DNA of 64,000 bases from an uncultured cyanobacterium (GCA_963706595.1 OY970166.1:1088001-1152000); one strand, 5' to 3'; shown: positions 5,023 to 27,585, counted from the stretch's first letter. The notes: generated by a model not told the origin, from the sequence alone. Made by a program: numbers and translations.

Positions 5023-5901
5023 ATGAATTTTCCCTATCGTCTACTTTTGCTCTGTAGCCTAGTTGGTACTGTCGGGTTAACATCCACACCCCTGAACTCG
5101 AACAGCGCCCATGCAGCCCCTAGTTGTCCAACTCCGGCGTTATCTCGCTTCCAGCGCCATCAAGTTAATCGTGGCGAAACTTTGGAGAGCATAGCACAGC
5201 GTTACAATCTCACGCCTACAACGCTAATCAATATGAATCCTGCTGTCAGAAACGGTAGCGTGACTGTTGGTAGCGAGCTACAAATTCCTCCCTTTAATGG
5301 GTTTGTGGTAGAAGTGCCTCGTGGACAAACTTGGCGAGATATGGCAAAAAAATATGAAGTTCGTGCTGATACGCTGTTTGAAATCAATGGTTGTCAACAA
5401 AATCTCAGGGTTGCTTTTATTCCAGTAGGAAATGTCTCTCCCAGTCGCCCCATAACTGCGTCTCCCGCCCCTGCTGATAGTCAGCCTATATCCATTTCTG
5501 GCTATCCTTTGCAGAAAATGGCCTCTGTGTTACTTCCTTATGGCTGGCAGATTAATCCTACTACTGGTGCGGTGTTTTTCCATAGTGGTGTAGATTTGTT
5601 GGCTGCTGTGGGTAATCCTGTACAAGCGATCGCACCTGGAACTATAGTCTTTGCTAATGACCAAGGGACTTATGGCCAGTTGGTGATTATTAATCATGCT
5701 GGCAATCTGCAAAGCCGTTACGCCCATCTGGGGGAAATTAAGGTTTCTGTAGGTCAAAAAGTGAATGCAGGTGACTTACTAGGAACTGTAGGCACGACTG
5801 GAGAGCCTACCGGAGGTCGGACACACCTCCATTTTGAAATGCGTTCTAGCTCTGATTTGGGTTGGGTGGCTGAAGATCCTAAAGGTTATTTACAGCAGTG
5901 A
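5023..5901 (+). CDS. LysM-domain M23 family peptidoglycan metallopeptidase
   Basis: Signal peptide, LysM (HQVNRGETLESIAQRYNL), HSGVDL, YAHL and HLHFE motifs. Confidence 0.93.
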   Translation: MNFPYRLLLLCSLVGTVGLTSTPLNSNSAHAAPSCPTPALSRFQRHQVNRGETLESIAQRYNLTPTTLINMNPAVRNGSVTVGSELQIPPFNGFVVEVPRGQTWRDMAKKYEVRADTLFEINGCQQNLRVAFIPVGNVSPSRPITASPAPADSQPISISGYPLQKMASVLLPYGWQINPTTGAVFFHSGVDLLAAVGNPVQAIAPGTIVFANDQGTYGQLVIINHAGNLQSRYAHLGEIKVSVGQKVNAGDLLGTVGTTGEPTGGRTHLHFEMRSSSDLGWVAEDPKGYLQQ

Positions 5902-10710: not shown

Positions 10711-11718
10711 GTGAAAGCAGTTTTAATGACAGCAGCTGGTAGTCCTGAAGTTCTGCAATTACAGGATGTGCCAAAACCTACTTTACCTTTAGGAAATAGT
10801 GAGCTTTTAGTCCGTTTAGTAGCGGCTGGTGTTAACCCCATTGATATAAAACTCCGTCAGCGAGGCACTTTTTATCCTGAGCAAATGCCGGCGATTTTAG
10901 GCTGTGATGGTGCTGGAATTGTTGAGGCTGTGGGTGTTGGTGTTGAAAGATTTCGCGTAGGTGATGAGGTGTTTTTTTGCTATGGTGGCTTGGGCGCACA
11001 TCAGGGTAATTACGCTGAATATACTGTAGTTGATGAAAGGTTTGTGGCACGTAAACCGGCTTCAGTCTCTTTTGCAGAAGCCGCCGCAGCGCCTCTGGTA
11101 TTAATTACTGCGTGGGAAGCTTTGTATGAACGGGGGAGGTTAGCACCTGGAGAACGGGTGTTAATTCATGCGGGTGCTGGTGGTGTTGGTCATGTAGCGA
11201 TACAATTAGCAAAACTGAAGGGTGCTTCTGTCTGCACTACTGTGAGTTCTCAGGAAAAGGCTAATTTTGTGAAAGCACTCGGTGCTGATGAGGTAATTTT
11301 TTACAAAGAAACAGATTTTGTCAATGCGGTGTTAAGTTGGACTGGTGGTGAAGGTGTAGATTTAGCTTTTGATACTGTGGGCGGTGAAACTTTTCACAAA
11401 ACTTTTCCGGCTGTGCGGGTATATGGGGATATTGTGACGATTCTGGAACCAAAGGCTGATACTGTTTGGAAGGCTGCTAGATTACGTAATCTCCGCGTTG
11501 GGTTGGAATTAATGCTGACTCCGATGTTGGAAGGTTTGGAGGAGTGTCTGAAGCATCATGGGGAAATTTTGGCGCAGTGTGCTACTTGGATGGATGAAGG
11601 GAAGTTGAAAGTTGAGGTGAGTCATCGCTTTCCTTTGGCGGAAGCGGCTCAGGCTCATCAAGTTCTTGAGTCTGGTGCGATGATTGGTAAGGTTGTTCTG
11701 TTAATGAGTGATGAGTGA
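10711..11718 (+). CDS. MDR family NADPH:quinone oxidoreductase / zinc-type alcohol dehydrogenase-like protein
   Basis: AAGVNPID, LGCDGAGIV, G.YAEY, VLIHAGAGGVGHVAIQLAK and GKVVL motifs. Confidence 0.92.
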   Translation: MKAVLMTAAGSPEVLQLQDVPKPTLPLGNSELLVRLVAAGVNPIDIKLRQRGTFYPEQMPAILGCDGAGIVEAVGVGVERFRVGDEVFFCYGGLGAHQGNYAEYTVVDERFVARKPASVSFAEAAAAPLVLITAWEALYERGRLAPGERVLIHAGAGGVGHVAIQLAKLKGASVCTTVSSQEKANFVKALGADEVIFYKETDFVNAVLSWTGGEGVDLAFDTVGGETFHKTFPAVRVYGDIVTILEPKADTVWKAARLRNLRVGLELMLTPMLEGLEECLKHHGEILAQCATWMDEGKLKVEVSHRFPLAEAAQAHQVLESGAMIGKVVLLMSDE

Positions 11719-11774
11719 TTGAATTTTTTTTTAAACGCAAAGGGGCGCGGAGGGAACCGCAAAGGGGCGCAGAG

Positions 11775-13952
11775 ATGAAATTATATTTATCTCTGCGTTG
11801 GGTTTGTATGTATGTCTGCGTTATATTAGTTCTACTTTTCTTTTCTTTACCTGCTGGGGCGATCGCAAGTCAACCAGAACGCACTTCTTTAAGTCTGGAG
11901 TTGTTGCAGGAACGATTGCAAGCTCCGGTAATTCGTGAGGGTAATTTGACTGTGGATTTACGGGATATGGTGATTGATTTGCGACCAGAAAATAGGGAAT
12001 TTCGGGATGAGTTTTACCAGTTGCTACGAAAGGAGTTACAAAAGTCGGGGACGAAACCTTTGGGTTTAGACTTGAGTAATTCTCTGATTCAGGGGAATTT
12101 TGTGGGTAGCGATTTGGGTTTGAGAACTCCTCTCTATGCTCCTATTTTGACGAGTGGTGAACAAGCCCAATTGTCACGTTTGCGTTTTGTTTGTTTGCAG
12201 TCTTTAGGAATCGCTTTACCTAATTCTAAGGACTGTCGCGCCCTTTTGGGAAGTCAGCCGACAGCATCTAGTGAAATCAACATCTTTCGTGGTTCTTTAA
12301 TTCTAGTAAAAACTCGCTTTAATGGGGAAGTACAGTTTCCTAATACTTTCTTTTTTCAGCCTGTGAATGCCAAAAATGCTATTTTTTTACAAGCTACTAA
12401 CTGGGCTGAAACTAGGTTTAGCCGTTCGGTACGTTTCACTGGGGCTAATTTTCGGCAATTAAGTAATTTTCAAACGAGTGTTTTTTTTGAGAAGGTTAAT
12501 TTTGAGCAGGTGCAATTTCAGGAAAGGGCTGATTTCCAAGATAGCACTTTTGAAGAGTCTACTAAATTTAATGAGGCTAGTTTTCAGCAATCAGCTAAAT
12601 TTAATCGGGCGCAATGGCGAGGGAATATTGATTTTTCTGGTGTGCAATTTGCTGATACTGCACAGTTTACTCAGGCGAATTTTTATCAGGATGTTTCGCT
12701 CACGGAAGCTATTTTTGAGCAAGCTGTAATTTTTCAAGAAGCTATTTTTAAGCAAGCTGTAAATTTACGTGGGGCTAGTATTTTTAACCAAGCCGATTTT
12801 AGCGATGCGCGGTTTGCTAAAGAGGCTTTTTTAAATGTCCCTGGTTTAACTTTTAATTCTAACCAAGGCAAGATTTTAGGAAATCCCGGCGAAATTGGCA
12901 AGATGTTTCGTGTTCCGACTTCCCAAGGGAATCAAAGTATTTTGCGGAATTTGGGGCAGAATTTCCGTCAGCAGCAGCAAATAGCGGATGCTAATCAGTT
13001 GGAGTATACAAAACAAAAACTGCAATTGCGGGAGTTAAGCCATCGTTTGGTGGATTGGAATATTAATAATGTTACGCAAAAAAGTTTGATTAATTTGGGT
13101 TTTAGTGTGGCTCAGGCGGATGCGATCGCACATCGTCGGATGATTGAACCATTTCGCAATAGCAGCGACTTATTAAGTTTACCAGATATCGATTTAGAAA
13201 CATACAATCAATTGAGCGATCGCCTCGTAATTGCTGAACCTCTTTCCCCTGGTAGTTGGTTCTTACAAGCTGCAAGATGGTTGGCTTTGAGTGTACTATT
13301 GTTGCTTAGTGGCTATGGTACCAGCTTTTGGTTAGTCTTTGGCGTGGGCGGAGTCGCGATCGCTTACTTCGGCGGTTTATTTTGGCTTGTTGATCGCTAT
13401 CGCCGTTTACATCCAGTAGCAATTATTCCTACATACCATGAAACTATGTGGATGTTCACTGGTTTCAGTATTTTAACCCTCTTGAGTTTATTAGCTATCT
13501 TTCGTAATGCTGAACAACCTTGGCTGACTCTCGCTTGTCTTTTAATAATTATTGTCCCCTTACCGATAACTTTATTAATCCGACTTTACCAACAAGGCCG
13601 CTATCACGATTTAATGGATATTTCTTATTTCACAGAAGACGGTACTTTCCGGCAATTACGCTTATTAATTGGACGATTACCAGTCATCCCAAGATATCAA
13701 ATGTTTCGGGAACGATATATGCATTTGTTATGGAATCGCCGTTGGAACTGGCTGAATTATTACGATTTTAGTTTGAACAATTTAGTCAGGCTAGGATTTA
13801 ACGATATTCGCCTGCGAGATGAACATTTACCGGGTATCATCGCCACACTTGCTTGGTATCAGTGGAGTTTGGGTATACTTTACATTACCCTAGTCTTGTG
13901 GACTCTTTCTCGCACTATTCCCGGATTAAATTTACTAATTTATCTCAAGTAA
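11775..13952 (+). CDS. pentapeptide-repeat membrane protein with a helix-hairpin-helix-like segment and C-terminal transmembrane region
   Basis: Many A.F..A.F pentapeptide repeats; NINN.....L..LG....A.AI...R...PF....DL segment; hydrophobic C-terminus. Start uncertain because the first 20 codons of the ORF are repeat DNA. Confidence 0.8.
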   Translation: MKLYLSLRWVCMYVCVILVLLFFSLPAGAIASQPERTSLSLELLQERLQAPVIREGNLTVDLRDMVIDLRPENREFRDEFYQLLRKELQKSGTKPLGLDLSNSLIQGNFVGSDLGLRTPLYAPILTSGEQAQLSRLRFVCLQSLGIALPNSKDCRALLGSQPTASSEINIFRGSLILVKTRFNGEVQFPNTFFFQPVNAKNAIFLQATNWAETRFSRSVRFTGANFRQLSNFQTSVFFEKVNFEQVQFQERADFQDSTFEESTKFNEASFQQSAKFNRAQWRGNIDFSGVQFADTAQFTQANFYQDVSLTEAIFEQAVIFQEAIFKQAVNLRGASIFNQADFSDARFAKEAFLNVPGLTFNSNQGKILGNPGEIGKMFRVPTSQGNQSILRNLGQNFRQQQQIADANQLEYTKQKLQLRELSHRLVDWNINNVTQKSLINLGFSVAQADAIAHRRMIEPFRNSSDLLSLPDIDLETYNQLSDRLVIAEPLSPGSWFLQAARWLALSVLLLLSGYGTSFWLVFGVGGVAIAYFGGLFWLVDRYRRLHPVAIIPTYHETMWMFTGFSILTLLSLLAIFRNAEQPWLTLACLLIIIVPLPITLLIRLYQQGRYHDLMDISYFTEDGTFRQLRLLIGRLPVIPRYQMFRERYMHLLWNRRWNWLNYYDFSLNNLVRLGFNDIRLRDEHLPGIIATLAWYQWSLGILYITLVLWTLSRTIPGLNLLIYLK

Positions 13953-14090: not shown

Positions 14091-14480
14091 ATGATTGACC
14101 ATATTGGGATTAACGTTAGTGACTTTGAGCATAGCAAGAATTTTTATGCCGTTGCCTTAGCTCCATTGGGATATGAGTTAGTCAAAGAGTACGATCATAC
14201 CGCAACTGGGATTAAATATGCAGCTGGTTTTGGCAGAGATGGAAAAGCTGACTTTTGGATTGTTGATGGGGAAGTCAACATTCCACAAATTCATGTAGCT
14301 TTCACAGTTGAATCCTGCGAGAAGGTTAACGCTTTTTACACAAATGCGATCAATGAGGGTGGTAGAGATAATGGCGCACCAAGTTGGCGATCGCATTATT
14401 ACCATTCCCAATACTATGGAGCGTTGGTTTTAGATCCAGATGGTCACAACATTGAAGCAGTATGTTATGCACTGTCATAA
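14091..14480 (+). CDS. VOC/glyoxalase family protein
   Basis: MIDHIGINVSD, HVAF, GG.DNGAP and YYGA.V.DPDGHNIEAVC motifs. Confidence 0.93.
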   Translation: MIDHIGINVSDFEHSKNFYAVALAPLGYELVKEYDHTATGIKYAAGFGRDGKADFWIVDGEVNIPQIHVAFTVESCEKVNAFYTNAINEGGRDNGAPSWRSHYYHSQYYGALVLDPDGHNIEAVCYALS

Positions 14481-14510: not shown

Positions 14511-15242
14511 AGCGATCGCCTCGTAATTGCTGATTATATAAGGTACTCTTAGCCCCCTCATCGCTTGCGGGGAGGGGGTTGGGGGTGGGGTTCTTGTACC
14601 TCATAACACCGGGAAGTGCTGTATTGTCTGGTTTTAGCTTTTTAACACTCTTTAGCTTATTAGCCATCTTCCGTAATGCTGAACAACCTTGGCGGACACT
14701 AGTACAAGTCGGCGTAAATAAACACACCATTCAAAATCCATGAAAAGCCCATTTTATAAGCTTTTTGACTTTTGACTTTTGACTTTTGACTTTTGACTTT
14801 TGACTTCCGCCTTGCGGTACTAGGGTGTCTTTTAATAATTATTGTTCCCTTACCTGTAATTTTATTAATGCGACTTTATCAACAAGGCCGCTATCACAAT
14901 TTAATTGATGTTTCTTATTTCACAGAAGATGGTACTTTTCGACAATTAAGATGATTAATTGGGCGATTACCAGTCATACCTAGAAATCAGACATTCCGCG
15001 AACGATATATGCCTCTTTGATGGAATAGTCGTTGGAATTGGTTAAATTACTACGACTTTAGCCTGAACAACTTAGTCAAATTAGGATTTAATGATATTTG
15101 CCTGCGAGATGAACACTTATCCGGTATCATCTCCACACTTGCGTGGTATCAGTGGAGTTTGGGAGTAATTTAGATCACCCTAGTCTTGTGGACTCTTTCT
15201 CGCACTATACCCGGATTGAATTTACTGATGTATCTCAAGTAA
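14511..15242 (+). pseudogene. diverged, disrupted duplicate of the 3' part of the pentapeptide-repeat gene
   Basis: 14511-14533 equals 13215-13237; ~14628-15242 aligns to ~13459-13952 with many substitutions, stops at 15018 (TGA) and 15171 (TAG), and repeat insertions. Confidence 0.9.
14699..14823. mobile_element. MITE-like insertion with CTAGTAC...GTACTAG ends, containing (TTTTGAC)n
   Basis: Interrupts the duplicated coding sequence at a CTAG; absent from the intact copy at ~13530. Confidence 0.8.
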
Positions 15243-15294
15243 TATCTGCGCTATTCTTGCCTATAGATCCAAATTTATTGTGCCATCACAGTAT

Positions 15295-15621
15295 TCAGTT
15301 ACTAGTGTAATTAGTCACAATAATTGCAGTATAAGTATTAAAACTAAAGGAGCGAGATGTTTCGTTATCAGTTCTGGCGAAGGATTTAGCTCGTGCAGAT
15401 GCTACGCCAATAGTCAGGTTTGGGAAATCTCTCACCGTTGATCGAGTGTAAGTATCAGTAGCAGTCTGACGACCTCTAGCAGATGCTATAGCAGTATAGC
15501 CCAAAGATTCAGGCTCTCTGGAGATAGAGGTTTCAGCATAGGTATTACCACCTTTTACAGTATTAGTCTCAGCAACTAGCTGTATATAACTTAAGTCTGC
15601 AATGATTAGTCGCTTTTTCAC
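15295..15621 (-). CDS. double-glycine-leader secreted peptide precursor C (Ser/Thr/Ala/Arg-rich core)
   Basis: Leader ..LIIADLSYIQLVAETNTVKGG; AAGGAAG RBS before the GTG start. Confidence 0.8.
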   Translation of the reverse strand: MKKRLIIADLSYIQLVAETNTVKGGNTYAETSISREPESLGYTAIASARGRQTATDTYTRSTVRDFPNLTIGVASARAKSFARTDNETSRSFSFNTYTAIIVTNYTSN

Positions 15622-15656
15622 AACTTCCTTAATTTAGTAAATTGGGGTCATTTTTT

Positions 15657-15800
15657 CCAACTGGATCGGCGATTTTCTGCCCACTAATGATTTGTGAATA
15701 TGGGTAAATTCTCGCCGCCAACCAGTTGCTGTGTTGAATGCTTCGTAGTTGTTAGCCTAACTATGAATTACAACTTAATTAGATAGACTACGAAGCAAAT
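15657..15800 (-). other. two long imperfect stem-loops between precursor genes B and C
   Basis: CAACTGG..CGGCGA..GCCCA pairs with TGGGT..TCGCCG..CCAGTTG; TGCTTCGTAGT pairs with ACTACGAAGCA. Confidence 0.6.
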
Positions 15801-15814
15801 CAACAAGTTGTTAT

Positions 15815-16156
15815 TTATAAGCTAATCAAAGCAGCAGAACTACTAGATGAGAAGGAATTACCGTAGTAATCTGTAACAGCCAATGTGTCTGCCTTAGTGT
15901 AGCTATAAGCATGATATTCACCAACATCTGCTACACCTTTAGCACCAGCAGAAGCACTGATGTTATGAACATCTTCAGGTGCTTTGATGATTGTTGTAAA
16001 TTTATTTGTGGTATCGAATGTAGTTTCTACTTTGTCATTTTGATAGTAGGATAAATTCCGATTGCCCCTATCTCTTTTCCCTTTTTTCTCACCACCACCT
16101 TGAATTTTAGATGCTTCTTGAATATTTTCTAAAATGCTTAAATCAGAAATGTTCAT
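15815..16156 (-). CDS. double-glycine-leader secreted peptide precursor B
   Basis: Leader MNISDLSILENIQEASKIQGG; charged N-terminal core followed by an Ala/Ser/Thr/Tyr-rich core. Confidence 0.85.
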   Translation of the reverse strand: MNISDLSILENIQEASKIQGGGEKKGKRDRGNRNLSYYQNDKVETTFDTTNKFTTIIKAPEDVHNISASAGAKGVADVGEYHAYSYTKADTLAVTDYYGNSFSSSSSAALISL

Positions 16157-16217
16157 GATTTATTCTTAGTAATTTTCTAGTTGGTTTAGGGATTTTATTA
16201 TAACCAATTCGCTTTGA

Positions 16218-16240
16218 TTGGCTATGTTTATATAATAGCT
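16218..16240 (-). promoter_or_regulatory. putative -10 element plus conserved AAACATAGCCAA motif upstream of precursor B
   Basis: The same 12-mer, preceded by a TAtnnT-like hexamer, occurs upstream of precursor A (16904-16915). Confidence 0.55.
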
Positions 16241-16605
16241 AATTACCTCAAGAAAGTAACTGATTTATTTTTTGTTTTTACCGAAAAATAATTCAAATAA
16301 TTATTTTTATATACTCAATTTATAGGCAAATCTTTGCAGTTTAGTTTAGTAAGTTTCGATATTTTGAATGAAAATAAAAAAATATTGCTGGAACGCTTTT
16401 TAGCTATTCCAACAATATTTGTACTGCCTGATTACAATATGAAATTGACGGGCTTAATCTCAATCATAGGAGAACTACAAGCAAAGATTAAGTTAAAAAT
16501 CCAGACAAAACCCAACCAAAAATGGTTTTATTTATTCTGAGAATCGGGATCAATTTCAAATTGCTGACAGTTTTTTTTGCCAATTGTACTATTTCTTGCA
16601 GTCCA

Positions 16606-16857
16606 TTAAGAGATACTAATCTTTGGCACTACTGTAACTTTAACCTCAGTTTCTTGTGTGATTTTGAAGGTATCATTATCATTTGTGTTGCTAGTATATT
16701 TCTTACTTTCATCATTATCTTTAGTGTATTTTCTGTCGCCATTATTCTTCTTAGTGTATTTTTCTTCTTCCTGACGTTTATTATTTTTCCAACCACAACC
16801 ACCAATAACATTTGCTGCTGTAACGGTTTCTAAGATGTTTAAATCAGAAATGAACAT
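16606..16857 (-). CDS. double-glycine-leader secreted peptide precursor A (three KYT repeats)
   Basis: Leader MFISDLNILETVTAANVIGG; CAGGAGA RBS. Confidence 0.85.
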   Translation of the reverse strand: MFISDLNILETVTAANVIGGCGWKNNKRQEEEKYTKKNNGDRKYTKDNDESKKYTSNTNDNDTFKITQETEVKVTVVPKISIS

Positions 16858-16903
16858 TGAGTTTCTCCTGGGTTATTTACTGTTTTCTAGCCGTCTTTTG
16901 TGT

Positions 16904-16926
16904 TTGGCTATGTTTTTAATATATCC
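16904..16926 (-). promoter_or_regulatory. putative -10 element plus conserved AAACATAGCCAA motif upstream of precursor A
   Basis: Matches the motif upstream of precursor B. Confidence 0.55.
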
Positions 16927-17030
16927 GATTATTCAACTAAGTCAATATCTCATGCAACATCTTTTTTTTGAAAAATAATATTAATAGATGGTGCAATTTA
17001 ATATATTTCTAATAACCTATTCACGCCAAA

Positions 17031-17057
17031 TTTAGGCAATATAATATATTGCCTAAA
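17031..17057. promoter_or_regulatory. perfect 13-1-13 palindrome, possible operator
   Basis: TTTAGGCAATATA-A-TATATTGCCTAAA. Confidence 0.4.
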
Positions 17058-17206
17058 AACAGGAGTTTTTAAATAAATTAATTTTTATCCGGGATTAAAC
17101 AGTGTACAAGCACTATTTATTAGCCATCAGCCAATACACTTTGGTTAAGGCTAACTTTTTTTAAGCGAACCTCAGAGCCGAGAGGCCACAGAGTGTTACA
17201 TACTTA

Positions 17207-17328
17207 TACCAATTCTGTATGAAGATGCGCTGAATTATATGAGTAACGTTAGCGTAGCCTGCGCGTAGCGCATACCGCAAAGGATACAAAGAAAGAAATT
17301 CAGCGCAGCTTTACATAGAAAGGGTATT
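17207..17328. repeat. MITE-like inverted-repeat element carrying a 27-nt SDR-like insert
   Basis: ATACC.ATTCTGTATGAAG.TGCGCTGAATT and AATTCAGCGCAGCTTTACATAGAAAGGGTAT arms. Confidence 0.65.
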
Positions 17329-17361
17329 AGGTTTATTTGTGCCTACTTACTTAACTATAAA

Positions 17362-18141
17362 TTAGGTCTGCGTCAGCAATTCTTTCGGTGACTGTATCGT
17401 ATCTGCATCTAGCTGAGTAATTATTTCTATAGCATCAATTTGTTGCTTTAACCAACCAGTAAATAATTCTGTAATGATTTTTTCGCGTAAGGATTCATCT
17501 AATTGGGGTTGACTAATTTCTTCTACCCAAATTAAGTACACTTCTTTTGTAGTCGCAATTGGCTTGAGAATCTGCGGTGGAGTTGCAGCAAATACAGCAG
17601 CAGCAATTTCTGGGCGAAAATCTTTACGGTGTCGCCGTCCCTGATATCCATAAGTACCCCGATGTTCTGATTCGGGGATATATAGACGAGCAATTTCTGG
17701 AAAACTAATTTCTCCTTCTTCCACCGCATAAAACATTTCTAAAGCCAAGTCTTGATCATCAAAAATCACTTGATATGTTATGGCGGTGATATAATCTAGT
17801 TGATGTTCATAAAAGAATCGTTCCACTTGGGAATTAAATAGAAAATTTGCTAACTTTTTGGCAAGAATTTGGTTGTGGACTAATTCTTCAAACTCATTCA
17901 CAGAAAGATAGTTTTTCTCTAGCCATGTTAATGTATCTTGGGCTTTTACAAGCTTCTTAGCTAAACGTAATTTATCTCCTTCTTCCTGTATTTCTTCTGG
18001 TGTGACTGTAATTCCTGAGCGCTGGGCTACTTCTGCAATAATCTTTTGTGATGCGATCGCCTCTAAAAGAACAGGAACCTGCGATGATAGTTTCAGGCTG
18101 TGAATGATGTCTGAACTAGAAATAGACAAAATTTGAGTCAT
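17362..18141 (-). CDS. parvulin/SurA-PrsA-like peptidylprolyl isomerase of a T1SS peptide cluster
   Basis: GI.VT.EEIQ..GD..R, F.EIAR.Y, G..G......RPEIAAAVFAA.P..ILKPI.T; adjacent to HlyD and C39-ABC genes. Confidence 0.85.
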   Translation of the reverse strand: MTQILSISSSDIIHSLKLSSQVPVLLEAIASQKIIAEVAQRSGITVTPEEIQEEGDKLRLAKKLVKAQDTLTWLEKNYLSVNEFEELVHNQILAKKLANFLFNSQVERFFYEHQLDYITAITYQVIFDDQDLALEMFYAVEEGEISFPEIARLYIPESEHRGTYGYQGRRHRKDFRPEIAAAVFAATPPQILKPIATTKEVYLIWVEEISQPQLDESLREKIITELFTGWLKQQIDAIEIITQLDADTIQSPKELLTQT

Positions 18142-18194
18142 GATTCAATCCTTGTAGTAATTTTGCTATTTTTTGATGGCTCTACAAGCAATGA

Positions 18195-19748
18195 CTAAAG
18201 CTCTAAACCGTTTTTGTGCAATTTCTTAAACGGATCTAAAACAAAATCAATCACGCGTCGCTGACGCAAAATCACTTCAGCATTTGCTGTTTGTCCTGGG
18301 TTTAATGGAATACGTTTTGCACCACTTTGGACATAGTTCTGTTCTAAAACGATTTCTAACTCATAGGTTTCTATATTTCCTTGGGGTGTTTGATTAATTT
18401 TAGAGTCAGGAGAAATCCAAGCCACTTTACCTTCCACAATGCCATATTCCTGGAAAGGAAAGGCATCAAACTTGACTTTCACCGACATTCCCACATTTAA
18501 GAAGCCGCTATCCTGGATTGGTATATTCGCTTTGAGTACGATGGGACTATTTTGAGGTGCAATGTGAGCAATCCTTTGACCGACTTGTACCACCTCTCCC
18601 GGCTTCGTGACTGGTAACTCAAAAATTGTGCCATCAATAGGCGATCGCACCACACGTTGCTGCATTTGTAGATTTAAGGATGTAATTTTGCTCTGAGTTT
18701 GAGCAATTTCAGATTGTAAATTAGTAACCTGCGTCTCTAAACTTTTAAGTTGTTCTTGATATTTAAGCACAGCCAATTTACCAGATTTTAGTAAACTTTG
18801 ATGACTGTTTTTCTCGGCTTGAAGTTGATATTTTGCTTGTTCAATATCAGATTCCAACTGATTCATTGTCACCTGATAGCGGCTCGTTTCTTCAGCCAAG
18901 CGTAATTGTGCTTGTTTGACATCAGATTGCGCTCTGGAGTAAAGTCTTTTACTTTCTTGTTCTTCTTTTTTGAGTTGGTCAACTTGATTCGCCGAAACCG
19001 CACCATTGTTCACAAGTTGCTGAAAACGTTGGACTTGCCGGGAATCTATACTCAAACGACCTTGAGCCGACTGCTGGTCATTTTTAGCCGTTTGAATCTG
19101 CTGCTGTACCTGATTAACTAATGCTTGTATTTCTAACTTTTGCAGGTTATAAGTACTTTGTTTTAACCCTAGGTTTTGCTCTGCCTGGTTCACTTGAGAC
19201 ATTTTTTCTAAAGCTTGAAATTGGTTTTGTTGTTTCTGAATACTTAGTGTCAACTGAAGTTGGTTTTTTAGCACATCAAACTGCGCTTCTTGATTTAGCA
19301 GTGCGGAAAGTTTAGCTTCGGCTTGCTGAAGTTCCGTTTGCAAAATCTCAGTATCAAGTTCCATCAACACCTGTCCCATGGTTACAGTGTCGCCTGCTGT
19401 CACCTTCACAGCTTTGACACTTCCTCCGGCTTGTGAGTCCAATTTTTGTGTTGCACCTTGAGGTTCTATGCGTCCTCTGGCGCTACCAGTTTCATCTACT
19501 TTTGAGAAAGTTGCCCAAGGTAAAGCTAGAGATGCAAAGCCTACCAGCACATAAAACACACCACGAGTCCAGACTTTTGGTAAAGCATCTAGCAGTTCTT
19601 CAGTACCGTAATATAAATCTTCGGTATTACCTTCTGGAATGGTCTTGTTAAATTTAGTAGTTTCTTCGCTGGGTTGAATATAAACTTTATAGTCTTCTTG
19701 CTCTTTTTTGAGAAGTAGAGATGAGGCATTAGGAAAGGTATTAGGCAT
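18195..19748 (-). CDS. HlyD family type I secretion membrane fusion protein
   Basis: Single TM, VDETGSARGRIEP, long coiled coil, VRSPIDGTIF, VKFDAFPFQEYG and PGQTANAEV motifs. Confidence 0.95.
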   Translation of the reverse strand: MPNTFPNASSLLLKKEQEDYKVYIQPSEETTKFNKTIPEGNTEDLYYGTEELLDALPKVWTRGVFYVLVGFASLALPWATFSKVDETGSARGRIEPQGATQKLDSQAGGSVKAVKVTAGDTVTMGQVLMELDTEILQTELQQAEAKLSALLNQEAQFDVLKNQLQLTLSIQKQQNQFQALEKMSQVNQAEQNLGLKQSTYNLQKLEIQALVNQVQQQIQTAKNDQQSAQGRLSIDSRQVQRFQQLVNNGAVSANQVDQLKKEEQESKRLYSRAQSDVKQAQLRLAEETSRYQVTMNQLESDIEQAKYQLQAEKNSHQSLLKSGKLAVLKYQEQLKSLETQVTNLQSEIAQTQSKITSLNLQMQQRVVRSPIDGTIFELPVTKPGEVVQVGQRIAHIAPQNSPIVLKANIPIQDSGFLNVGMSVKVKFDAFPFQEYGIVEGKVAWISPDSKINQTPQGNIETYELEIVLEQNYVQSGAKRIPLNPGQTANAEVILRQRRVIDFVLDPFKKLHKNGLEL

Positions 19749-19844
19749 GATTTTATGGGGAGTGGGGAGTGGGGGGAAGAGGCAGGGGTGCAGGGTGCAG
19801 GGTGCAGGGGGGAAAGAGGCAGAGATGCAATTGTCTGAGTGAAA

Positions 19845-22800
19845 TTAAACTACTTGAGCTAATTGTTGTTGATTGAGATAGTAGTAATGTCCTTGTTTAG
19901 CAATTAGTTCTTCGTGAGTACCGCTTTCTACTAATACGCCTCGATCTAAAACTAAAATTAGATCGGCATTACGGACTGTGGAAAGGCGATGGGCAATAAT
20001 GACGCTGGTACGCCCTTGAAGAATTGTTTTGAGGTTGTTCTGAATAATTCTTTCTGATTCTGAGTCTAGGTGACTGGTGGCTTCATCAAAGAGTAATAGC
20101 CGGGGGTTGCCGAGTAAGGCTCTAGCAATGGCGAGGCGTTGGCGTTGTCCACCAGAAAGCATTCCGCCACTTTCGCCAATTTGGGATTCATAACCCATTG
20201 GCATTTGCTGAATAAATTCATCTGCACCAGCCCATCGTGCGGCTTGTGCAATTTCTTCTAAGGTGGCTTCTGGGTGGGCGATGCCAATGTTTTCTCGAAC
20301 TGTGCCACCAAATAGAAAGGTATCTTGATCAACTACACCTATTTGACATCGCAGCGATCGCAAGGCAATATTATTCACATCAAAGCCATCAATTAAAACT
20401 TTGCCATCTGTTGGTGGGTATAAACCTAAAATCAATTTGCTCAAGGTGGTTTTTCCCGAACCACTCCGCCCCACCACCGCTACCATTTGCTCTGGCTGGA
20501 TTTCAAAGTTGATATTTTCCAGCACGTTAGTCTCACTTTCAGCATGATAACGAAATGTGACATTTTTAAAGCAAATCCGGCCATTTAGTCTCTCTAGAGG
20601 CTTGCGGGGTTTCTTCTGCAAGTCTTCTTCTGGTTCGGCTTCTAAAACATCATTAATCCGTTCTGTAGAAATAATAATTTCCTGTAATCCATTCCACAGC
20701 ATCGATAACCTTTGAAAAGGACTCAAGACGTTACCCACCAACATATTGAAAGCTACTAACTGCCCCATTGTCAGTTCCCCTTGAATGACTTGCCATGCGC
20801 CAAACCACATTAAGGAAGCATTGACAAATGTTTGAATAACGCCACTAAGGATTTGTAGGCGATTACCTATCACTTGGGCATGAAAGCCTTTTTTTACCAA
20901 ATCATTCAGCAACTCTTCCCAATGCCAGCGTACCGTCTGTTCAATGGCTAATGAACGCACTGTGCGAATGCCTGACAGAGATTCAATCAGATAACTGTTT
21001 TCTTTGGCTCCAGCATTAAAAATCTCTCTGGAAATGCGACGCAAAATATTTGTGCTAGCCAGTGCGAGAATAAAAAATGGCGGCACTGTTAATAGTACGA
21101 ATAAGGTCATGCGCCAGCTATACCAAAACATCATGCTCAGATAAATCACTAATGTCAGCAGATCCAGGATGATTGATAAAGTCTCGCCGGTCAGGAAGCG
21201 CTGAATTTTTTGATTTTCTTGAATGCGAGAAACAATATCACCCACATAACGCGACTCGAAATAAGCCAGGGGTAAGCGGAAGGTATGTTTAATAAAACCC
21301 ACAAGTAGGGAGATGCTGACGCGATTGGCTGTGTGATCTAGCAGATATTGCCGCACGGCGTTCATGGCGATCCCAAATAAACCAAAAACGATCATCCCTA
21401 TACCTACGGCGTTTAAAGTAGGAATGCTGCCTTGCACCAGGACTCGATCTAGTAATAGTTGGGTGAAGACTGGCGTTACTAGTCCGAATATTTGCATCAG
21501 CACACTGGCGATGAAGACTTCTATCAGGACTGCATAGTGAGGTTTAATTAACTCAAAGAATTTCCAAAAGTTGGCTTTCTCGTTCTTAGTTTGTTTGAGT
21601 AACTCTGTCGGTTGCAGTAATAAGGCATAACCAGTCCAACCTGCATTAAATTGGCTTCTGGTAAGGCTAACTTGACCGATAGCGGGGTCTCCGACGATTA
21701 CACGCTTTTTGGTGATTTGATAAACGACAATGAAGTGGTTGCCTTCCCAGTGTGCGATCGCAGGTAAAGCTTGTTCGGCAAACTTATCGAAGGTAGCTTT
21801 CACAGGACGGGTGGCAAAACCGAGGTTTTCTCCCACTGTGGCTAAGGCACGTAGAGATGCACCACTGCGGCTAACGTTGGTCATATCCCGCAAGCGATTC
21901 ACACTAAACTGCTTACCCCAATATTTACCAATCATCACTAAGCAAGCAGAGCCACAATCTGCGGCACTTTGTTGAGCATAAAAGGGATAGCGTTTGCTCA
22001 GGCGTTTCCACCAATGCCCCATTTGCACTTTCGGGCTGGGAAAGTAAGGAAGTGGTTTATTTTGCTGTTCTTGTGATTTTGCTTCTCGTTGGGGAAAGGG
22101 GATAACTTTGGCTATGGGGTATGGGCTTGGTTTTTTGGATGGGGAAGAGTCCTTTCTATGGGTCTGATTTCCAGTCTCCGAAGTCGGGTATTGTCTAGAC
22201 TCAGGGACAAATGCCGCTAAGGCTGGGCAGTGTTCCAGTACATTTTGCCAGTTGGAATCTTTGAGAATGTAAGCAATTGTCGGTTGTATGGCCTGCCAAT
22301 GACCCTGTTTTGGTTCCGCAGAGATTTGGGCTGGTGTCAGGGATTTACCCTCAGAATGCAGTAGTTGACCTTTGTACAACAACCATAATTGGGAATCGGG
22401 GAATTGTGTATTTACAGAGCCAATTTCTAGTTGGTGTCGCTCAAACAGGGATAAAGCCTTGAGCATGGAATGAAATTGACTGGGATGTGCAGGAAATTGT
22501 GAGTTTTGGCGACATGAAAGCAGTAAATCCCATATTTCTGCACGAGAGAACAAGCGATCGCGAATTTGAGGATATTTGTCCATCAATCCTTGCAATACCT
22601 CTTGTCTGAGATACCCAAGTTCTAAATTTGTCGAGGCTCTGGCGGTGTAATCACTAAAGTTTGACTCTGGGAACAAAGTCATTTCACCAAATGAAGACCA
22701 TGCTGATAAAGTCGTGATTAAATCATCAGAACTATCTGATAATCTGACTTTACCGGCAAGAATGACATAAATACCAGCCTTCATTTCTGCGGATTGCCAG

Positions 22801-22934
22801 AACTGCTTTGTTACTGGTGGCTCCACAAGTTCCATAGATGCCAAACAGTTTTGCAGTTCTTGTTTTAAAAGCGTCTCTCCCAAAACGTAAGTTAGTTTTT
22901 CACCTAGATGTTGCGGGGAAAATACCGTTGTCAT
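19845..22934 (-). CDS. peptidase C39-containing ABC exporter with N-terminal cNMP-binding-like domain
   Basis: FGEMTLF..ARA (cNMP-like), QQSAADCG / HWEGNHF / GDPA (C39 Cys-His-Asp), TM domain, GRSGSGKTT, LSGGQRQR, FDEATS, IAHRL. Confidence 0.95.
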   Translation of the reverse strand: MTTVFSPQHLGEKLTYVLGETLLKQELQNCLASMELVEPPVTKQFWQSAEMKAGIYVILAGKVRLSDSSDDLITTLSAWSSFGEMTLFPESNFSDYTARASTNLELGYLRQEVLQGLMDKYPQIRDRLFSRAEIWDLLLSCRQNSQFPAHPSQFHSMLKALSLFERHQLEIGSVNTQFPDSQLWLLYKGQLLHSEGKSLTPAQISAEPKQGHWQAIQPTIAYILKDSNWQNVLEHCPALAAFVPESRQYPTSETGNQTHRKDSSPSKKPSPYPIAKVIPFPQREAKSQEQQNKPLPYFPSPKVQMGHWWKRLSKRYPFYAQQSAADCGSACLVMIGKYWGKQFSVNRLRDMTNVSRSGASLRALATVGENLGFATRPVKATFDKFAEQALPAIAHWEGNHFIVVYQITKKRVIVGDPAIGQVSLTRSQFNAGWTGYALLLQPTELLKQTKNEKANFWKFFELIKPHYAVLIEVFIASVLMQIFGLVTPVFTQLLLDRVLVQGSIPTLNAVGIGMIVFGLFGIAMNAVRQYLLDHTANRVSISLLVGFIKHTFRLPLAYFESRYVGDIVSRIQENQKIQRFLTGETLSIILDLLTLVIYLSMMFWYSWRMTLFVLLTVPPFFILALASTNILRRISREIFNAGAKENSYLIESLSGIRTVRSLAIEQTVRWHWEELLNDLVKKGFHAQVIGNRLQILSGVIQTFVNASLMWFGAWQVIQGELTMGQLVAFNMLVGNVLSPFQRLSMLWNGLQEIIISTERINDVLEAEPEEDLQKKPRKPLERLNGRICFKNVTFRYHAESETNVLENINFEIQPEQMVAVVGRSGSGKTTLSKLILGLYPPTDGKVLIDGFDVNNIALRSLRCQIGVVDQDTFLFGGTVRENIGIAHPEATLEEIAQAARWAGADEFIQQMPMGYESQIGESGGMLSGGQRQRLAIARALLGNPRLLLFDEATSHLDSESERIIQNNLKTILQGRTSVIIAHRLSTVRNADLILVLDRGVLVESGTHEELIAKQGHYYYLNQQQLAQVV

Positions 22935-24158
22935 AACCTAACCTCCAAAACAGAATTAGTTACTGGTCTACATCAGACTGAATAACTAATCAAAACTGGG
23001 TGAATGGCAAAAACCTGATTGCGGCTAAAATTTGTGTGTAAATCACAACTATTGAGTTATTCTGATTGATCCTGATCATCTCAACTATTGTCCATTCCGG
23101 GATTTCGCAATCACAAACATCCTCAATTTCCTTATGGGATGGGTGTTATATCGTGTTCGGGGAAAGACTTATCATTAAGGCCGCAGGGGTGCAGGGTGCA
23201 GGGAGCAGGGGGAAAGAGGATTTTACGTTTTTTGCACAGAGGTGGGAATTAGAACTAATTAGGCGAACATGATATTACTACCCGTCCCATTTTTCAGGTT
23301 GGCAAGATGCTCAACGCCACCAAATGGACAATTTATTTGTGAAAAATCCCTAATTCAACAACGATGTTAAGTAAGTGGATAAAAATAAATCAAACTTTGT
23401 TACGAAGGATTTAATCCGGACAATATTAGAAATAACTGTTAAAGCACCCATGACCAGCGATTAGTAAATTTAAGGTTTGTTTTCACCTACTTAGTTAGTT
23501 GATCAAATGAGTATCTCGTCGTTGTATCAGCCTAAAAATTAGATTTCAGTAATTGTAAATTGGATGCTTTTTGCAACCCATAATTGCTAGTAATATTGTC
23601 CTCGACTATCAATTGTTTAACAGGTTTTTAGTCTTTGTGTCATGCCACACTGGCACAACTTTGGTGAATCACCATATTTTTCTTTTTATATAAAATATTT
23701 ATATCTGTTATAGTCTATTTAGAAAAATTTTTATTCAAAATGTTAATAAATCAATTGAAAAAACGTAGAAATATGAATTGAGGGCTACCGTGTACACACA
23801 AGTCGGGAAATATTACCTGCACTCATTTTCTTTTGCTAGGGTGCGTTATGGACTTTAGTCCTAACGCACCGAAAATCTGGGACTTTCAACCCAATTTTTC
23901 GGTAATATTTTTACTTGAAGTGTCGCCGTGGTAGTTGAAGAGAAAAATTCTGAAAACCCTGCCTCAAAATAAGCAGGGGAGCAGGGAGCAGGGGGGAGTT
24001 AAGAGGCAGGGGAGCGGGGAGCGGGGAGCAAGGGGGAGTAATAAATTACTTTAAACTTCCGGTTACTTAACAACCATTCCTCTTCTCCCCTGCCCCCTGC
24101 ACCCTGCCCCCGTTCCCCCTGAACCCTGCACCCTTCCCCTCTGCCTCTTCGGTAACTG

Positions 24159-27052: not shown

Positions 27053-27585
27053 ATGCCTGTGATTGAGAAAAAACGAACTCGCGATCTGCCCCAAATCAAC
27101 GAGCGCATCCGCTTTCCCAAGATTCGGGTCATTGATAATGATGGCACGCAATTAGGAATTATGCCTCCACAAGAAGCATTGCAACTAGCTGACGAGAAAG
27201 AGCTAGACCTAGTATTGCTAAGTGACAAGGCTGACCCACCGTTTGTCGAATCATGGATTACGGGAAGTATAAGTTTGAGCAGGAAAAGAAGGCACGGGAA
27301 GCCCGGAAAAAGCAGCACACGGCTGATGTGAAAGAAGTGAAGATGCGTTATAAAATAGAAGAACATGATTATAATGTGCGTGTTAAGCAAGCCGAGCGCT
27401 TCCTCAAAGATGGTGATAAAGTGAAGGCGACTGTGATGTTCCGGGGTCGAGAGATTCAACACAGTGACTTAGCAGAGCATTTGCTCAAGCGCATGGCTAA
27501 GGATTTGGAGCCGCTTGGTGAACTCCAGCAAGCACCCAAAAGAGAAGGGAGAAATATGATGATGCTGATTTCACCCAAAAAATAA
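27053..27585 (+). CDS. infC: translation initiation factor IF-3, frameshifted by a 1-nt deletion near 27241
   Basis: [13 protein letters not shown]...[12 protein letters not shown] in one frame and MDYGKYKFE...VKEVKMR...FRGRE in the next; adding one G restores [11 protein letters not shown]. Confidence 0.95.

Follow-up and report, generated by a model that had tools for sequence, protein, structure and literature searches.

A cyanobacterial secretion locus with three double-glycine leader proteins that may be subunits of a beta-sheet surface structure

We examined a type I secretion locus within a 64,000-nucleotide stretch of DNA (the window) from an uncultured cyanobacterium (GCA_963706595.1, OY970166.1:1088001-1152000). 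Six co-oriented genes on the minus strand encode an exporter, an adaptor, a SurA-like protein and three small cargo proteins, ORF1 to ORF3 (Table 1). All six are present where the original prediction had placed them, and the three leaders are the sequences that it quoted. Every reading frame is intact. The intergenic gaps among the cargo genes span 193-504 bp, and a scan of the locus for promoters and terminators stayed at chance level (25 promoter-like sites against a shuffle mean of 24.3).

Table 1. Genes of the secretion locus, with positions counted from the first nucleotide of the window.
Feature	Position	Strand	Supporting match
Long-type peptidase-containing ABC exporter (PCAT), 1029 aa	19845..22934	-	Pfam PF00027, PF03412, PF00664, PF00005
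HlyD-family type I secretion adaptor, 517 aa	18195..19748	-	TIGR01843, 229 bits (cut-off 208.65)
SurA-N/rotamase-like protein, 259 aa	17362..18141	-	Matches below Pfam and NCBIfam cut-offs
ORF1 cargo, 83 aa (20-aa leader, 63-aa core)	16606..16857	-	Leader HMM, E 1.4e-7
ORF2 cargo, 113 aa (21-aa leader, 92-aa core)	15815..16156	-	Leader HMM, E 7.9e-6
ORF3 cargo, 108 aa, GTG start (25-aa leader, 83-aa core)	15295..15621	-	Leader HMM, E 5.2e-4

The exporter combines a cNMP-binding domain, a C39 peptidase, an ABC membrane domain and an ATPase, in that order. The N-terminal cNMP-binding domain (PF00027, residues 51-121) was absent from the first description of the locus. The C39 catalytic triad is intact, as had been claimed: Gln321, Cys327, His400 and Asp416 are all in place, as are the Walker A/B and signature motifs. 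Relatives of this exporter that are 88-89% identical occur in Nodularia sp. and Anabaena sp. CCY 0017. The neighboring SurA-like protein had been called a parvulin PPIase, an assignment that fits poorly, since the domain looks degenerate. Its scores lie below the Pfam rotamase cut-offs (26.6 against 27 and 20.9 against 21.7) and below that of TIGR04500 (63 against 180), and the two positions that we take to be the parvulin histidines are not His in this protein, nor in the consensus of 76 orthologues. The cargo cores, moreover, contain only about 1-3% Pro. No N-terminal signal peptide was seen by inspection, and the protein probably acts as a holdase in the cytoplasm, not as an active isomerase.

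Members of the cargo family have in common a leader of 20-25 residues with the motif IxDLxYLE...GG. A leader HMM seeded with 79 distinct leaders, all from other genomes, was run against all 64,240 stop-to-stop frames in the six-frame translation of the genome and matched only the three ORFs (next E 0.47), although this test is not fully independent because the pattern by which the seeds were chosen had itself been derived from the window leaders. Of the 64 related exporter loci with 4.5 kb or more of sequence past the SurA-like gene, 59 carry leader ORFs, and four of the remaining five are a 65%-identical sister paralogue. Among 24 genomes of the same family, cargo matches were found in all 14 whose SurA orthologue is 61% identical or more, a threshold chosen after the data were seen, and in none of the other 10. 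Outside genome G000, a SurA-like gene is found no more than 10 kb away from 46 of the 52 cargo matches. The leader family is thus tightly linked to this exporter clade, and these linkage tests back the proposal that the small proteins are dedicated double-glycine (GG) cargo of the exporter. With N-terminal GG leaders linked to an intact C39 exporter, the sequences suggest that the leaders are likely cut after GG and the cores secreted.

The cargo family comprises at least 787 clusters at 50% identity. No Pfam or NCBIfam model was found for it: 133 members gave scattered weak matches, at most five of the 133 to any one family. Most cores (110 of 140) fit one of the classes A, A2 and B, and a class A core is present in 63 of 65 cargo loci, counts for which the class A profile overlaps the set that was classified. 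ORF2 belongs to A2, a subfamily of the main class A in which a long strand is followed by three small-residue strands; it scores 116.6 bits against the A2 core HMM and 13.7 bits against that of class A (0/500 shuffles as high), and has 15 homologues. ORF3 is a class B protein (24.9 bits, 0/300 shuffles as high; 49.8 bits with a larger profile). The hairpin AxAxAxAxG-xx-TxTxT recurs in the two profile-related classes to which ORF2 and ORF3 belong. In core-only profile comparisons, class B matched class A with probability 89.7 and A2 matched A with 92.0, with 0/40 column-shuffled controls as high, although such shuffles cannot tell homology from common beta-periodicity. The direct comparison of B with A2 was not significant (probability 7; 3/40 controls as high), and class A is thus the only link between ORF2 and ORF3. 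The cores, originally described as unrelated, are so in pairwise comparison, but not at the level of the family, where the classes of ORF2 and ORF3 are both profile-related to the main class.

Small residues alternate along the cores with period 2 (autocorrelation 0.24-0.32 at lag 2), and besides being poor in Pro the cores hold 21-28% Ser+Thr and <0.5% Cys. ORF1 stands apart. It has no small-residue meander and no match to the class A, A2 or B core profiles; its core contains one Cys, repeats rich in Lys, Asp, Glu and Tyr, and one terminal beta-strand. The same class occupies the first cargo position in five congeners (G002, G003, G006, G008 and G009), and ORF1 is a genus-conserved charged variant. 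We rejected the idea that it is a truncated class A pseudogene, given the same short class and terminal strand in these five genomes and dN/dS values of 0.27-0.58. Tandem cargo copies at least 85% identical are found in 12 of 31 multi-cargo loci, which suggests dosage rather than diversification. Alignment A1 leaves out one member, the second copy of L032, which is truncated at a contig end. Nitrococcus mobilis encodes a 46%-identical A2 core preceded by a Sec-type signal peptide. The gene context of this homologue was not recovered by two metagenome scans and a plasmid search; all 18 loci returned in one search looked cyanobacterial.

The best AlphaFold2 model of ORF3 is a five-strand antiparallel single-layer beta-meander (pLDDT 88.9, pTM 0.70; range of the five models, pLDDT 63-89). 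One face of the predicted sheet is mostly Ala, Ser, Thr and Gly; the other, bulkier face bears Arg, Lys and Asp, and neither is lipid-facing. The ORF2 core was poorly modeled as a monomer (pLDDT 53.6), and a four-copy complex prediction scored 0.01, with the fold of the subunit itself uncertain. Foldseek returned no match to the ORF3 model in the PDB at E<=0.001, the best PDB match by VIA (Z 4.5, rmsd 2.6, 58 aligned) is at background level, and comparison with viral models gave nothing over background. A PDB sequence search with both class profiles yielded nothing credible. The family composition and the ORF3 model are those of a beta-only, Cys- and Pro-poor subunit with a small-residue face, ORF1 excepted. 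A one-layer meander that leaves both edges open and lacks a hydrophobic core would be unlikely to be stable alone.

All three ORFs are under purifying selection, with dN/dS of 0.14-0.76 in each of 14 pairwise comparisons with homologues. Congeners have a three-gene cargo layout at the same chromosomal site, where their genes differ from the ORF2 and ORF3 found here. Modifying enzymes had been described as lacking, which holds for the locus itself: no LanM, YcaO, rSAM or immunity-like gene adjoins it, no maturase of modified RiPPs (lanthipeptide, YcaO, rSAM, graspetide) was found within the window, and no MvdD-type match in the whole genome. It does not hold for the system, as 37 of the 64 related loci encode a TPR-GT41-TPR glycosyltransferase, roughly half of these being loci of closely related Nostoc genomes. 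This gene is co-oriented in 36/36 ORF hits and lies 0.1-3.2 kb past the last cargo gene. In 27 of the 64 loci there is a gene for a beta-domain joined to RTX repeats or to a PEP-CTERM-like tail, and the RTX proteins, instead of the cargo, could be the GT41 target. Neither the linked type of GT41 nor the RTX/PEP-CTERM partners were found in this genome. Among 98 related loci, Nif11/rSAM RiPP genes occur in 24-25 and microviridin/ATP-grasp genes in eight. These rSAM and ATP-grasp enzymes come with Nif11 or microviridin precursors of their own, and we rejected the cores as graspetide or rSAM substrates on that ground.

The gene architecture and the leader motif have been known since 2011. The group I and II "bacteriocin" clusters of Wang 2011 (PMC3140520) have the same organization, with a long CAP_ED/cNMP-C39-ABC exporter, HlyD, a SurA/rotamase protein and several small GG precursors; such clusters are also treated by Micallef 2015 (PMC4558948). 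The window locus has the long-type exporter and the HlyD and SurA/rotamase genes of groups I, II and VI, the rotamase and SurA_N matches being just below cut-off. None of the extra group II genes (HetP, M16 peptidase, APH, COG3415) adjoins the locus in the window, which is thus group I by organization or a reduced group II. Wang 2011 filed most group II precursors (58 of 87) as "Other"; its tables, as available to us, give no sequences for these, which may overlap with the cargo family. The motif KIxDLxYLEx10GG is printed there for HetP-family proteins only; nothing in the text available presents it as a leader at the N-terminus of a distinct family of cargo, which is how it occurs here. In the literature covered, from which subscription journals are mostly absent, we found the motif only in these two papers, and the available text of neither describes the core classes, the fold or the GT41 and RTX links (PMC3140520; PMC4558948).

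An amyloid or biofilm role for Anabaena GG clusters was proposed in print in 2025. There is an experimental precedent in EbfG1-4/PteB of Synechococcus elongatus and the CTB-family precursors (NF038167), where several small unmodified GG proteins are likewise exported by a C39 ABC transporter with HlyD (PMC4997328; PMC12267927). In a reporter system EbfG1-3 form amyloid, and biofilm formation requires them (PMC4997328; bioRxiv 2022.07.13.498973), and EbfG4 is a surface protein that does not form amyloid alone (bioRxiv 2022.07.13.498973). An extracellular beta-type matrix role has been demonstrated for EbfG itself and for the window cargo is only predicted. The comparison drawn originally with EbfG/PteB is an analogy: EbfG/CTB-type loci have another leader and a short-type exporter, and this genome has a separate CTB/EbfG4-type locus (C1, about 1.906-1.914 Mb; two of five tested ORFs pass NF038167) with an exporter 33% identical to that of the window. 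No window ORF and none of 133 family members matches NF038167, and the EbfG4-type CTB cores of this genome mostly have no match to the class core profiles. Orthology with EbfG was rejected accordingly. A CTB cluster is listed in the Atlas only at 0.85, as a lead.

The functional amyloids curli and Fap are multi-subunit, beta-rich extracellular fibers, in which a helper that counters aggregation accompanies major and minor subunits, and the Fap system includes a C39-family protein. The system proposed below resembles them in its beta-rich subunits and helper. They differ in using Sec and a dedicated outer-membrane pore, in place of export by a type I PCAT, and the Pfam/NCBIfam, PDB-sequence and fold searches gave no match between them and the cargo family.

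A beta-rich structural role is the best-supported reading of the cargo, and we give roughly even chances to these proteins being secreted subunits of a beta-sheet surface fiber or matrix. The reasons are the linkage, the conserved core architecture, the period-2 small residues, the ORF3 model, the tandem dosage, the surface-type neighbors, the Sec-type Nitrococcus homologue and the EbfG precedent; by analogy, amyloid formation is a candidate property of the cores. The SurA-like protein would keep aggregation-prone strands unfolded in the cytoplasm, the leader would dock on the C39 domain and be cut after GG, and HlyD with a TolC-type channel (not located here) would export the core. Released cores, predicted to be flat beta-sheets, may then assemble outside the cell into a fiber or surface coat, with class A (ORF2) as putative bulk subunit, class B (ORF3) as minor subunit and ORF1, with its one strand and charged coil, as a cap or decorating subunit. 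In many relatives the linked GT41 may glycosylate the Ser/Thr-rich cores before export; this genome yielded no such gene, so its own cargo would be left unmodified. Cassette exchange among congeners, which is also typical of conflict systems, counts against a structural role. Hundreds of cyanobacterial genes have been called "bacteriocin precursors" from the GG motif alone; the cargo family appears instead to be a class of secreted, structural beta-sheet proteins that is widespread and has no model, and it supplies specific candidates for the proteins that filamentous cyanobacteria use in their sheath or biofilm matrix. The window locus is a stripped version (exporter, adaptor, chaperone and three cargo proteins, with no linked glycosyltransferase), and thus simple to reconstitute.

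It is unlikely that the cargo instead kill competitors as bacteriocins or microcins, perhaps by forming beta-barrel pores, in unmodified form or, in relatives, in glycosylated form. A GG leader with PCAT and HlyD is the classic bacteriocin route, under which Wang 2011 filed such clusters, and the cargo cassette varies among congeners; yet no immunity-like gene is seen here or among the recurring neighbor families examined (a very small or distant one is possible), and the near-identical tandem copies also argue against this role. The cargo match no characterized antimicrobial family in the Pfam/NCBIfam and PDB searches, and no bacteriocin model matches any of the 133 members. RiPP genes do occur in related loci, but with their own precursors. 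The weak top structural matches of ORF3 are long hairpins of pore formers, but their Z of 4.5 is background and neither face of the sheet suits a lipid environment.

We think it quite unlikely that the cargo form no polymer of their own and work as adhesins, soluble or attached to the cell, or as glycoproteins that decorate the sheath, with polysaccharide, minerals or the RTX/PEP-CTERM partners as their ligands. The GT41, RTX and PEP-CTERM-like neighbors, the strongly charged low-complexity coils of the ORF1 class and the behavior of EbfG4 would suit such proteins, but the open-edged meander is unlikely to be stable alone, and the cargo are under purifying selection in a genome where those partners were not found.

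A role in signaling between cells or in regulating development, of the kind proposed for the exported product of the related exporter HetC, seems distinctly improbable. HetC has the same cNMP-C39-ABC layout as the window exporter, and its cNMP domain binds ppGpp (PMC10986499); hetC-hetP lies directly upstream of the module in 17 of 80 related loci, and HetP contains the leader motif of the cargo. At 60-90 aa, and given their regular beta-periodicity and tandem dosage, the cores nevertheless do not resemble short pheromones, the neighbors include no recurring receptor or two-component genes, and the 10 of 24 same-family genomes without a cargo match indicate that the cargo are not generally needed for heterocyst development. 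It is highly improbable that the locus is in decay, a relic with small ORFs that have ceased to be expressed or exported: the missing GT41 and RTX/PEP-CTERM partners, the wide cargo gene gaps and the chance-level promoter scan would fit, but the frames and catalytic triad are intact, dN/dS is below 1 throughout and congeners keep the three-gene layout in place.

The reading of the cargo as structural subunits can be extended, in a form that we consider rather doubtful as a whole: the IxDLxYLE...GG family would be undescribed filament or sheath subunits (A, B and an ORF1 cap) served by a dedicated PCAT and a holdase, in many cases with O-linked sugars added by GT41 and with RTX/PEP-CTERM proteins as the anchor, and hetC/hetP would have been recruited from it, with HetC cutting the HetP leader. 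The window exporter differs from HetC in being only 38% identical to the HetC-like protein of this genome, in belonging to another clade, and in having its own HlyD and free-standing cargo. The exporter tree is a quick version of 46 rows with no bootstrap, in which five picked loci gave no usable row and L014 and L016 represent the HetC-like genes located upstream in these two loci. A 2024 paper gives the HetC substrate as unknown and states that there is no GG-leader gene close to hetC (PMC10986499). The common leader bears on this question, as HetP itself carries it internally.

A short N-terminal part of HetP reportedly suffices for commitment, which would argue that the HetP tail is dispensable. 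The internal leader site of HetP is better kept where the catalytic Cys of HetC is intact and erodes where it is lost. In 18 of 80 related loci hetP is adjacent, upstream and co-oriented, and HetC-clade exporters also occur in operons of the order ABC-HlyD-hetP-cargo-SurA, within apparently non-heterocystous metagenome loci.

The predicted type I secretion locus is real: a cNMP-C39-ABC exporter, HlyD, a SurA/rotamase-like gene and three small GG-leader ORFs follow one another (table below) in a genome assembled as a single contig (C1) of 5.57 Mb, of which the window is C1:1088001-1152000. From the exporter to ORF3 the intergenic gaps are 96, 53, 504, 449, and 193 bp. The exporter has an intact C39 site (Gln321/Cys327/His400/Asp416), is 88-89% identical to the exporters of Nodularia sp. 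and Anabaena sp. CCY 0017, and clusters with Nodulariaceae in a quick tree. A leader HMM seeded with 79 distinct leaders, all from other genomes, matched exactly ORF1, ORF2 and ORF3 in 64,240 genome frames (E 1.4e-7 to 5.2e-4), a test that is not fully independent because the seeds were chosen by a window-derived pattern; the next-best match had E 0.47, and HetP was a weak match lower in the ranking.

Genes of the exporter locus (positions in the window)
Feature	Position	Strand	Remarks
Exporter	19845-22934	-	cNMP, C39, membrane and ATPase domains
HlyD	18195-19748	-	
SurA/rotamase-like gene	17362-18141	-	
ORF1	16606-16857	-	small ORF
ORF2	15815-16156	-	small ORF
ORF3	15295-15621	-	small ORF

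Directly downstream of ORF3 is a degenerate, stop-containing partial duplicate (14620-15243, +) of the 3' end of a pentapeptide-repeat membrane gene (11715-13952), 86% identical to it over 418 and 73 bp; a glyoxalase/VOC gene (14091-14480) separates the two. Short heptamer tandem repeats, which we take to be STRR-like, occupy flanking spacers (14760-14805, 19750-19820, and 23980-24140). Farther away, an IF-3-like gene recognized by eye (27053-27585, +) appears split over two overlapping frames (27053-27331 and 27253-27585), through a frameshift or sequencing error.

The neighborhoods of 80 related exporters yielded 140 ORFs with the leader, spread over 65 loci. Where at least 4.5 kb of sequence follows the SurA-like gene, 59 of 64 loci contain cargo, and four of the five cargo-less loci represent a sister paralogue (65% identical). 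Among 24 same-family genomes, cargo matches occur in 14/14 with a SurA orthologue (at least 61% identity) and 0/10 without one, and 46 of 52 matches lie within 10 kb of a SurA-like gene; these counts are our own, the 61% threshold was set afterwards, and kin genomes are not independent. The leader family is thus linked to the exporter module, the check that the original prediction had proposed. A profile of 133 family members matched 787 clusters at 50% identity, and no Pfam or NCBIfam family covers those members. Tandem copies at least 85% identical occur in 12 of 31 multi-cargo loci. Congeners carry at the same chromosomal site (L128:11172-12521, versus 15295-16156 in the window) another class A subfamily and an opposite-strand class B gene, and ORF2 is closest to metagenome proteins (86 and 68%), then Thermocoleostomius (61%), together suggesting cassette exchange at the ORF2/ORF3 site.

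Wang et al. (2011; PMC3140520) described, as groups I, II, and VI, clusters that encode a long CAP_ED-C39 exporter together with HlyD and SurA, left 58 of 87 group II precursors unclassified, and gave KIxDLxYLEx10GG as a motif of HetP proteins, which Micallef (2015) repeats. An amyloid or biofilm role was proposed in 2025 for Anabaena GG clusters, with short-type CTB clusters favored (PMC12267927). Our literature search, with most subscription journals and all figures outside its coverage, located the leader motif only in these two mining papers and no description of the cargo family. Both the architecture of the locus and its leader motif are already published; the cargo family, with its conserved beta-meander classes and GT41/RTX context, appears undescribed in searchable papers.

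The cores had been called unrelated, which holds pairwise and for ORF1, but not at the profile level for ORF2 and ORF3. Three classes take in 110 of 140 cores. Class A, found in 63/65 loci and usually the first cargo gene (59/64), has one long alternating strand followed by GN and by three further strands, of the AxAxAxAxG/TxTxT/SxSxS type. ORF2 belongs to subfamily A2 (116.6 bits; 13.7 bits against class A, 0/500 shuffles as high) and ORF3 to class B (24.9 bits; 0/300 shuffles as high). Core-only profiles match at probability 89.7 (B-A) and 92.0 (A2-A), with 0/40 column-shuffled controls as high, though common beta-periodicity could contribute; the direct B-A2 comparison was not significant. 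The ORF1 core matches none of A, A2 or B; its class, with Cys, charged repeats and a single terminal strand, is first-position cargo in five congeners. For mature ORF3, the best AlphaFold2 model (pLDDT 88.9, pTM 0.70; remaining models, pLDDT 63-76) predicts five antiparallel strands, with one face mostly Ala/Ser/Thr/Gly and the other bulky and charged, and no above-background match among solved or viral folds. The ORF2 monomer model was poor.

An A2 core from Nitrococcus mobilis, 46% identical to ORF2, is preceded by a Sec-type signal peptide and then by a short propeptide whose last residues are AG, so this core works as a secreted module apart from the PCAT exporter. N. mobilis and its relatives share this layout (P0173, P0166, P0174-P0176), their hairpin loop carrying a Cys-Gly-Cys insert, and the Atlas shows look-alike Pseudomonadota clusters (0.93).

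Gene anatomy, selection, linkage and core classes are direct results; beyond them, we infer that chaperoned precursors would dock on the C39 domain via the leader, be cut after GG, and exit via HlyD and a TolC-type channel, whereupon open-edged, core-less sheets may polymerize outside the cell, with class A putatively supplying the bulk subunit, class B a minor one, and ORF1 a cap or decoration. We consider this mechanism as a whole evenly poised between right and wrong. The predicted parvulin PPIase chaperone is present as a SurA/rotamase-like gene, but the protein falls below model cut-offs and lacks the histidines of the parvulin consensus, and the cores contain 1-3% Pro, making a holdase role more likely than an isomerase one.

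The expected lack of modifying enzymes holds at the window locus, and the best GT41 of its genome is 43% identical, so that the orthologue is counted as not found. It does not hold in relatives: 37/64 loci encode a TPR-GT41-TPR glycosyltransferase (catalytic region 64-82% identical to the query; PF13844 in 17/21 scanned TPR proteins), co-oriented in 36/36 ORF matches, 0.1-3.2 kb past the last cargo gene. As part of the mechanism above, cargo would be glycosylated there before export. The rSAM and ATP-grasp genes of relatives accompany their own Nif11 and microviridin precursors. In 27/64 loci, by eye and with no model match, a beta-domain is joined either to RTX repeats or to a PEP-CTERM-like tail; a genome search found no such gene in the window genome. 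Among the alternatives, a bacteriocin ranks first but is unlikely. A non-polymeric adhesin or sheath glycoprotein ranks second and is also improbable, a signal is third and slightly less probable still, and a relic is very improbable, the small ORFs being under purifying-type selection (dN/dS 0.14-0.76 in 14/14 homologue comparisons).

A GNAT (Acetyltransf_6)-TPR protein, domain-scanned in two of four loci, replaces GT41 after cargo in L014, L015, L017, and L018 (about 18300-20270), near a microviridin cluster. In the window genome, C1 2474305-2487412 holds three GT41-like TPR genes, the first apparently broken across two frames, and a methyltransferase-like gene beside a type IV pilin-like gene whose product has, by eye, an N-terminal methylation motif.

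This genome has its EbfG4/CTB-type system at another locus, whose short exporter is 33% identical to that in the window. That locus (L124, C1 1905500-1915000) contains seven small ORFs of GG type, of which two pass NF038167 (CTB) and one has Gly/Arg/Trp repeats; six of the seven proteins match no cargo core profile, and one is borderline.

In 17/80 loci, the module has a HetC-like exporter gene and hetP immediately upstream. In 5/5 such genomes tested, the upstream exporter is the protein most similar by identity to the HetC-like protein of the window genome, and two such sequences cluster with it (99% SH-aLRT, quick tree). HetC-clade or similarly distant exporters also occur in ABC-HlyD-hetP-cargo-SurA operons (e.g., L109, L112, L113, L126, L127). 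Among 40 same-family hetP regions, chosen from 59 matches by host contig size, the module, always with cargo, lies downstream in eight and the cargo-less sister paralogue in 17. PMC10986499 describes the substrate of HetC as unknown. In 20 regions hetP lies beside a Cys-intact HetC domain, and there GG closes the HetP site in 18/20, with 13-40 residues following; in three related genomes with Cys to Ser, including that of the window, only four follow, and GG is retained in 6/17 regions with no HetC C39 domain in the stretch retrieved, a comparison covering few independent events and 5.5 kb upstream, with one region ambiguous. The window genome's HetC-HetP pair (L129:770-3826 and 5145-5507; C1 about 3.245-3.250 Mb) shares both changes with G009 and G050. 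The sister paralogue of the module in this genome (C1 3305811-3311849; exporter 66% identical) has no leader-bearing cargo at this locus, an HTH gene upstream, and a divergent S8-type peptidase, labeled from reading the sequence.
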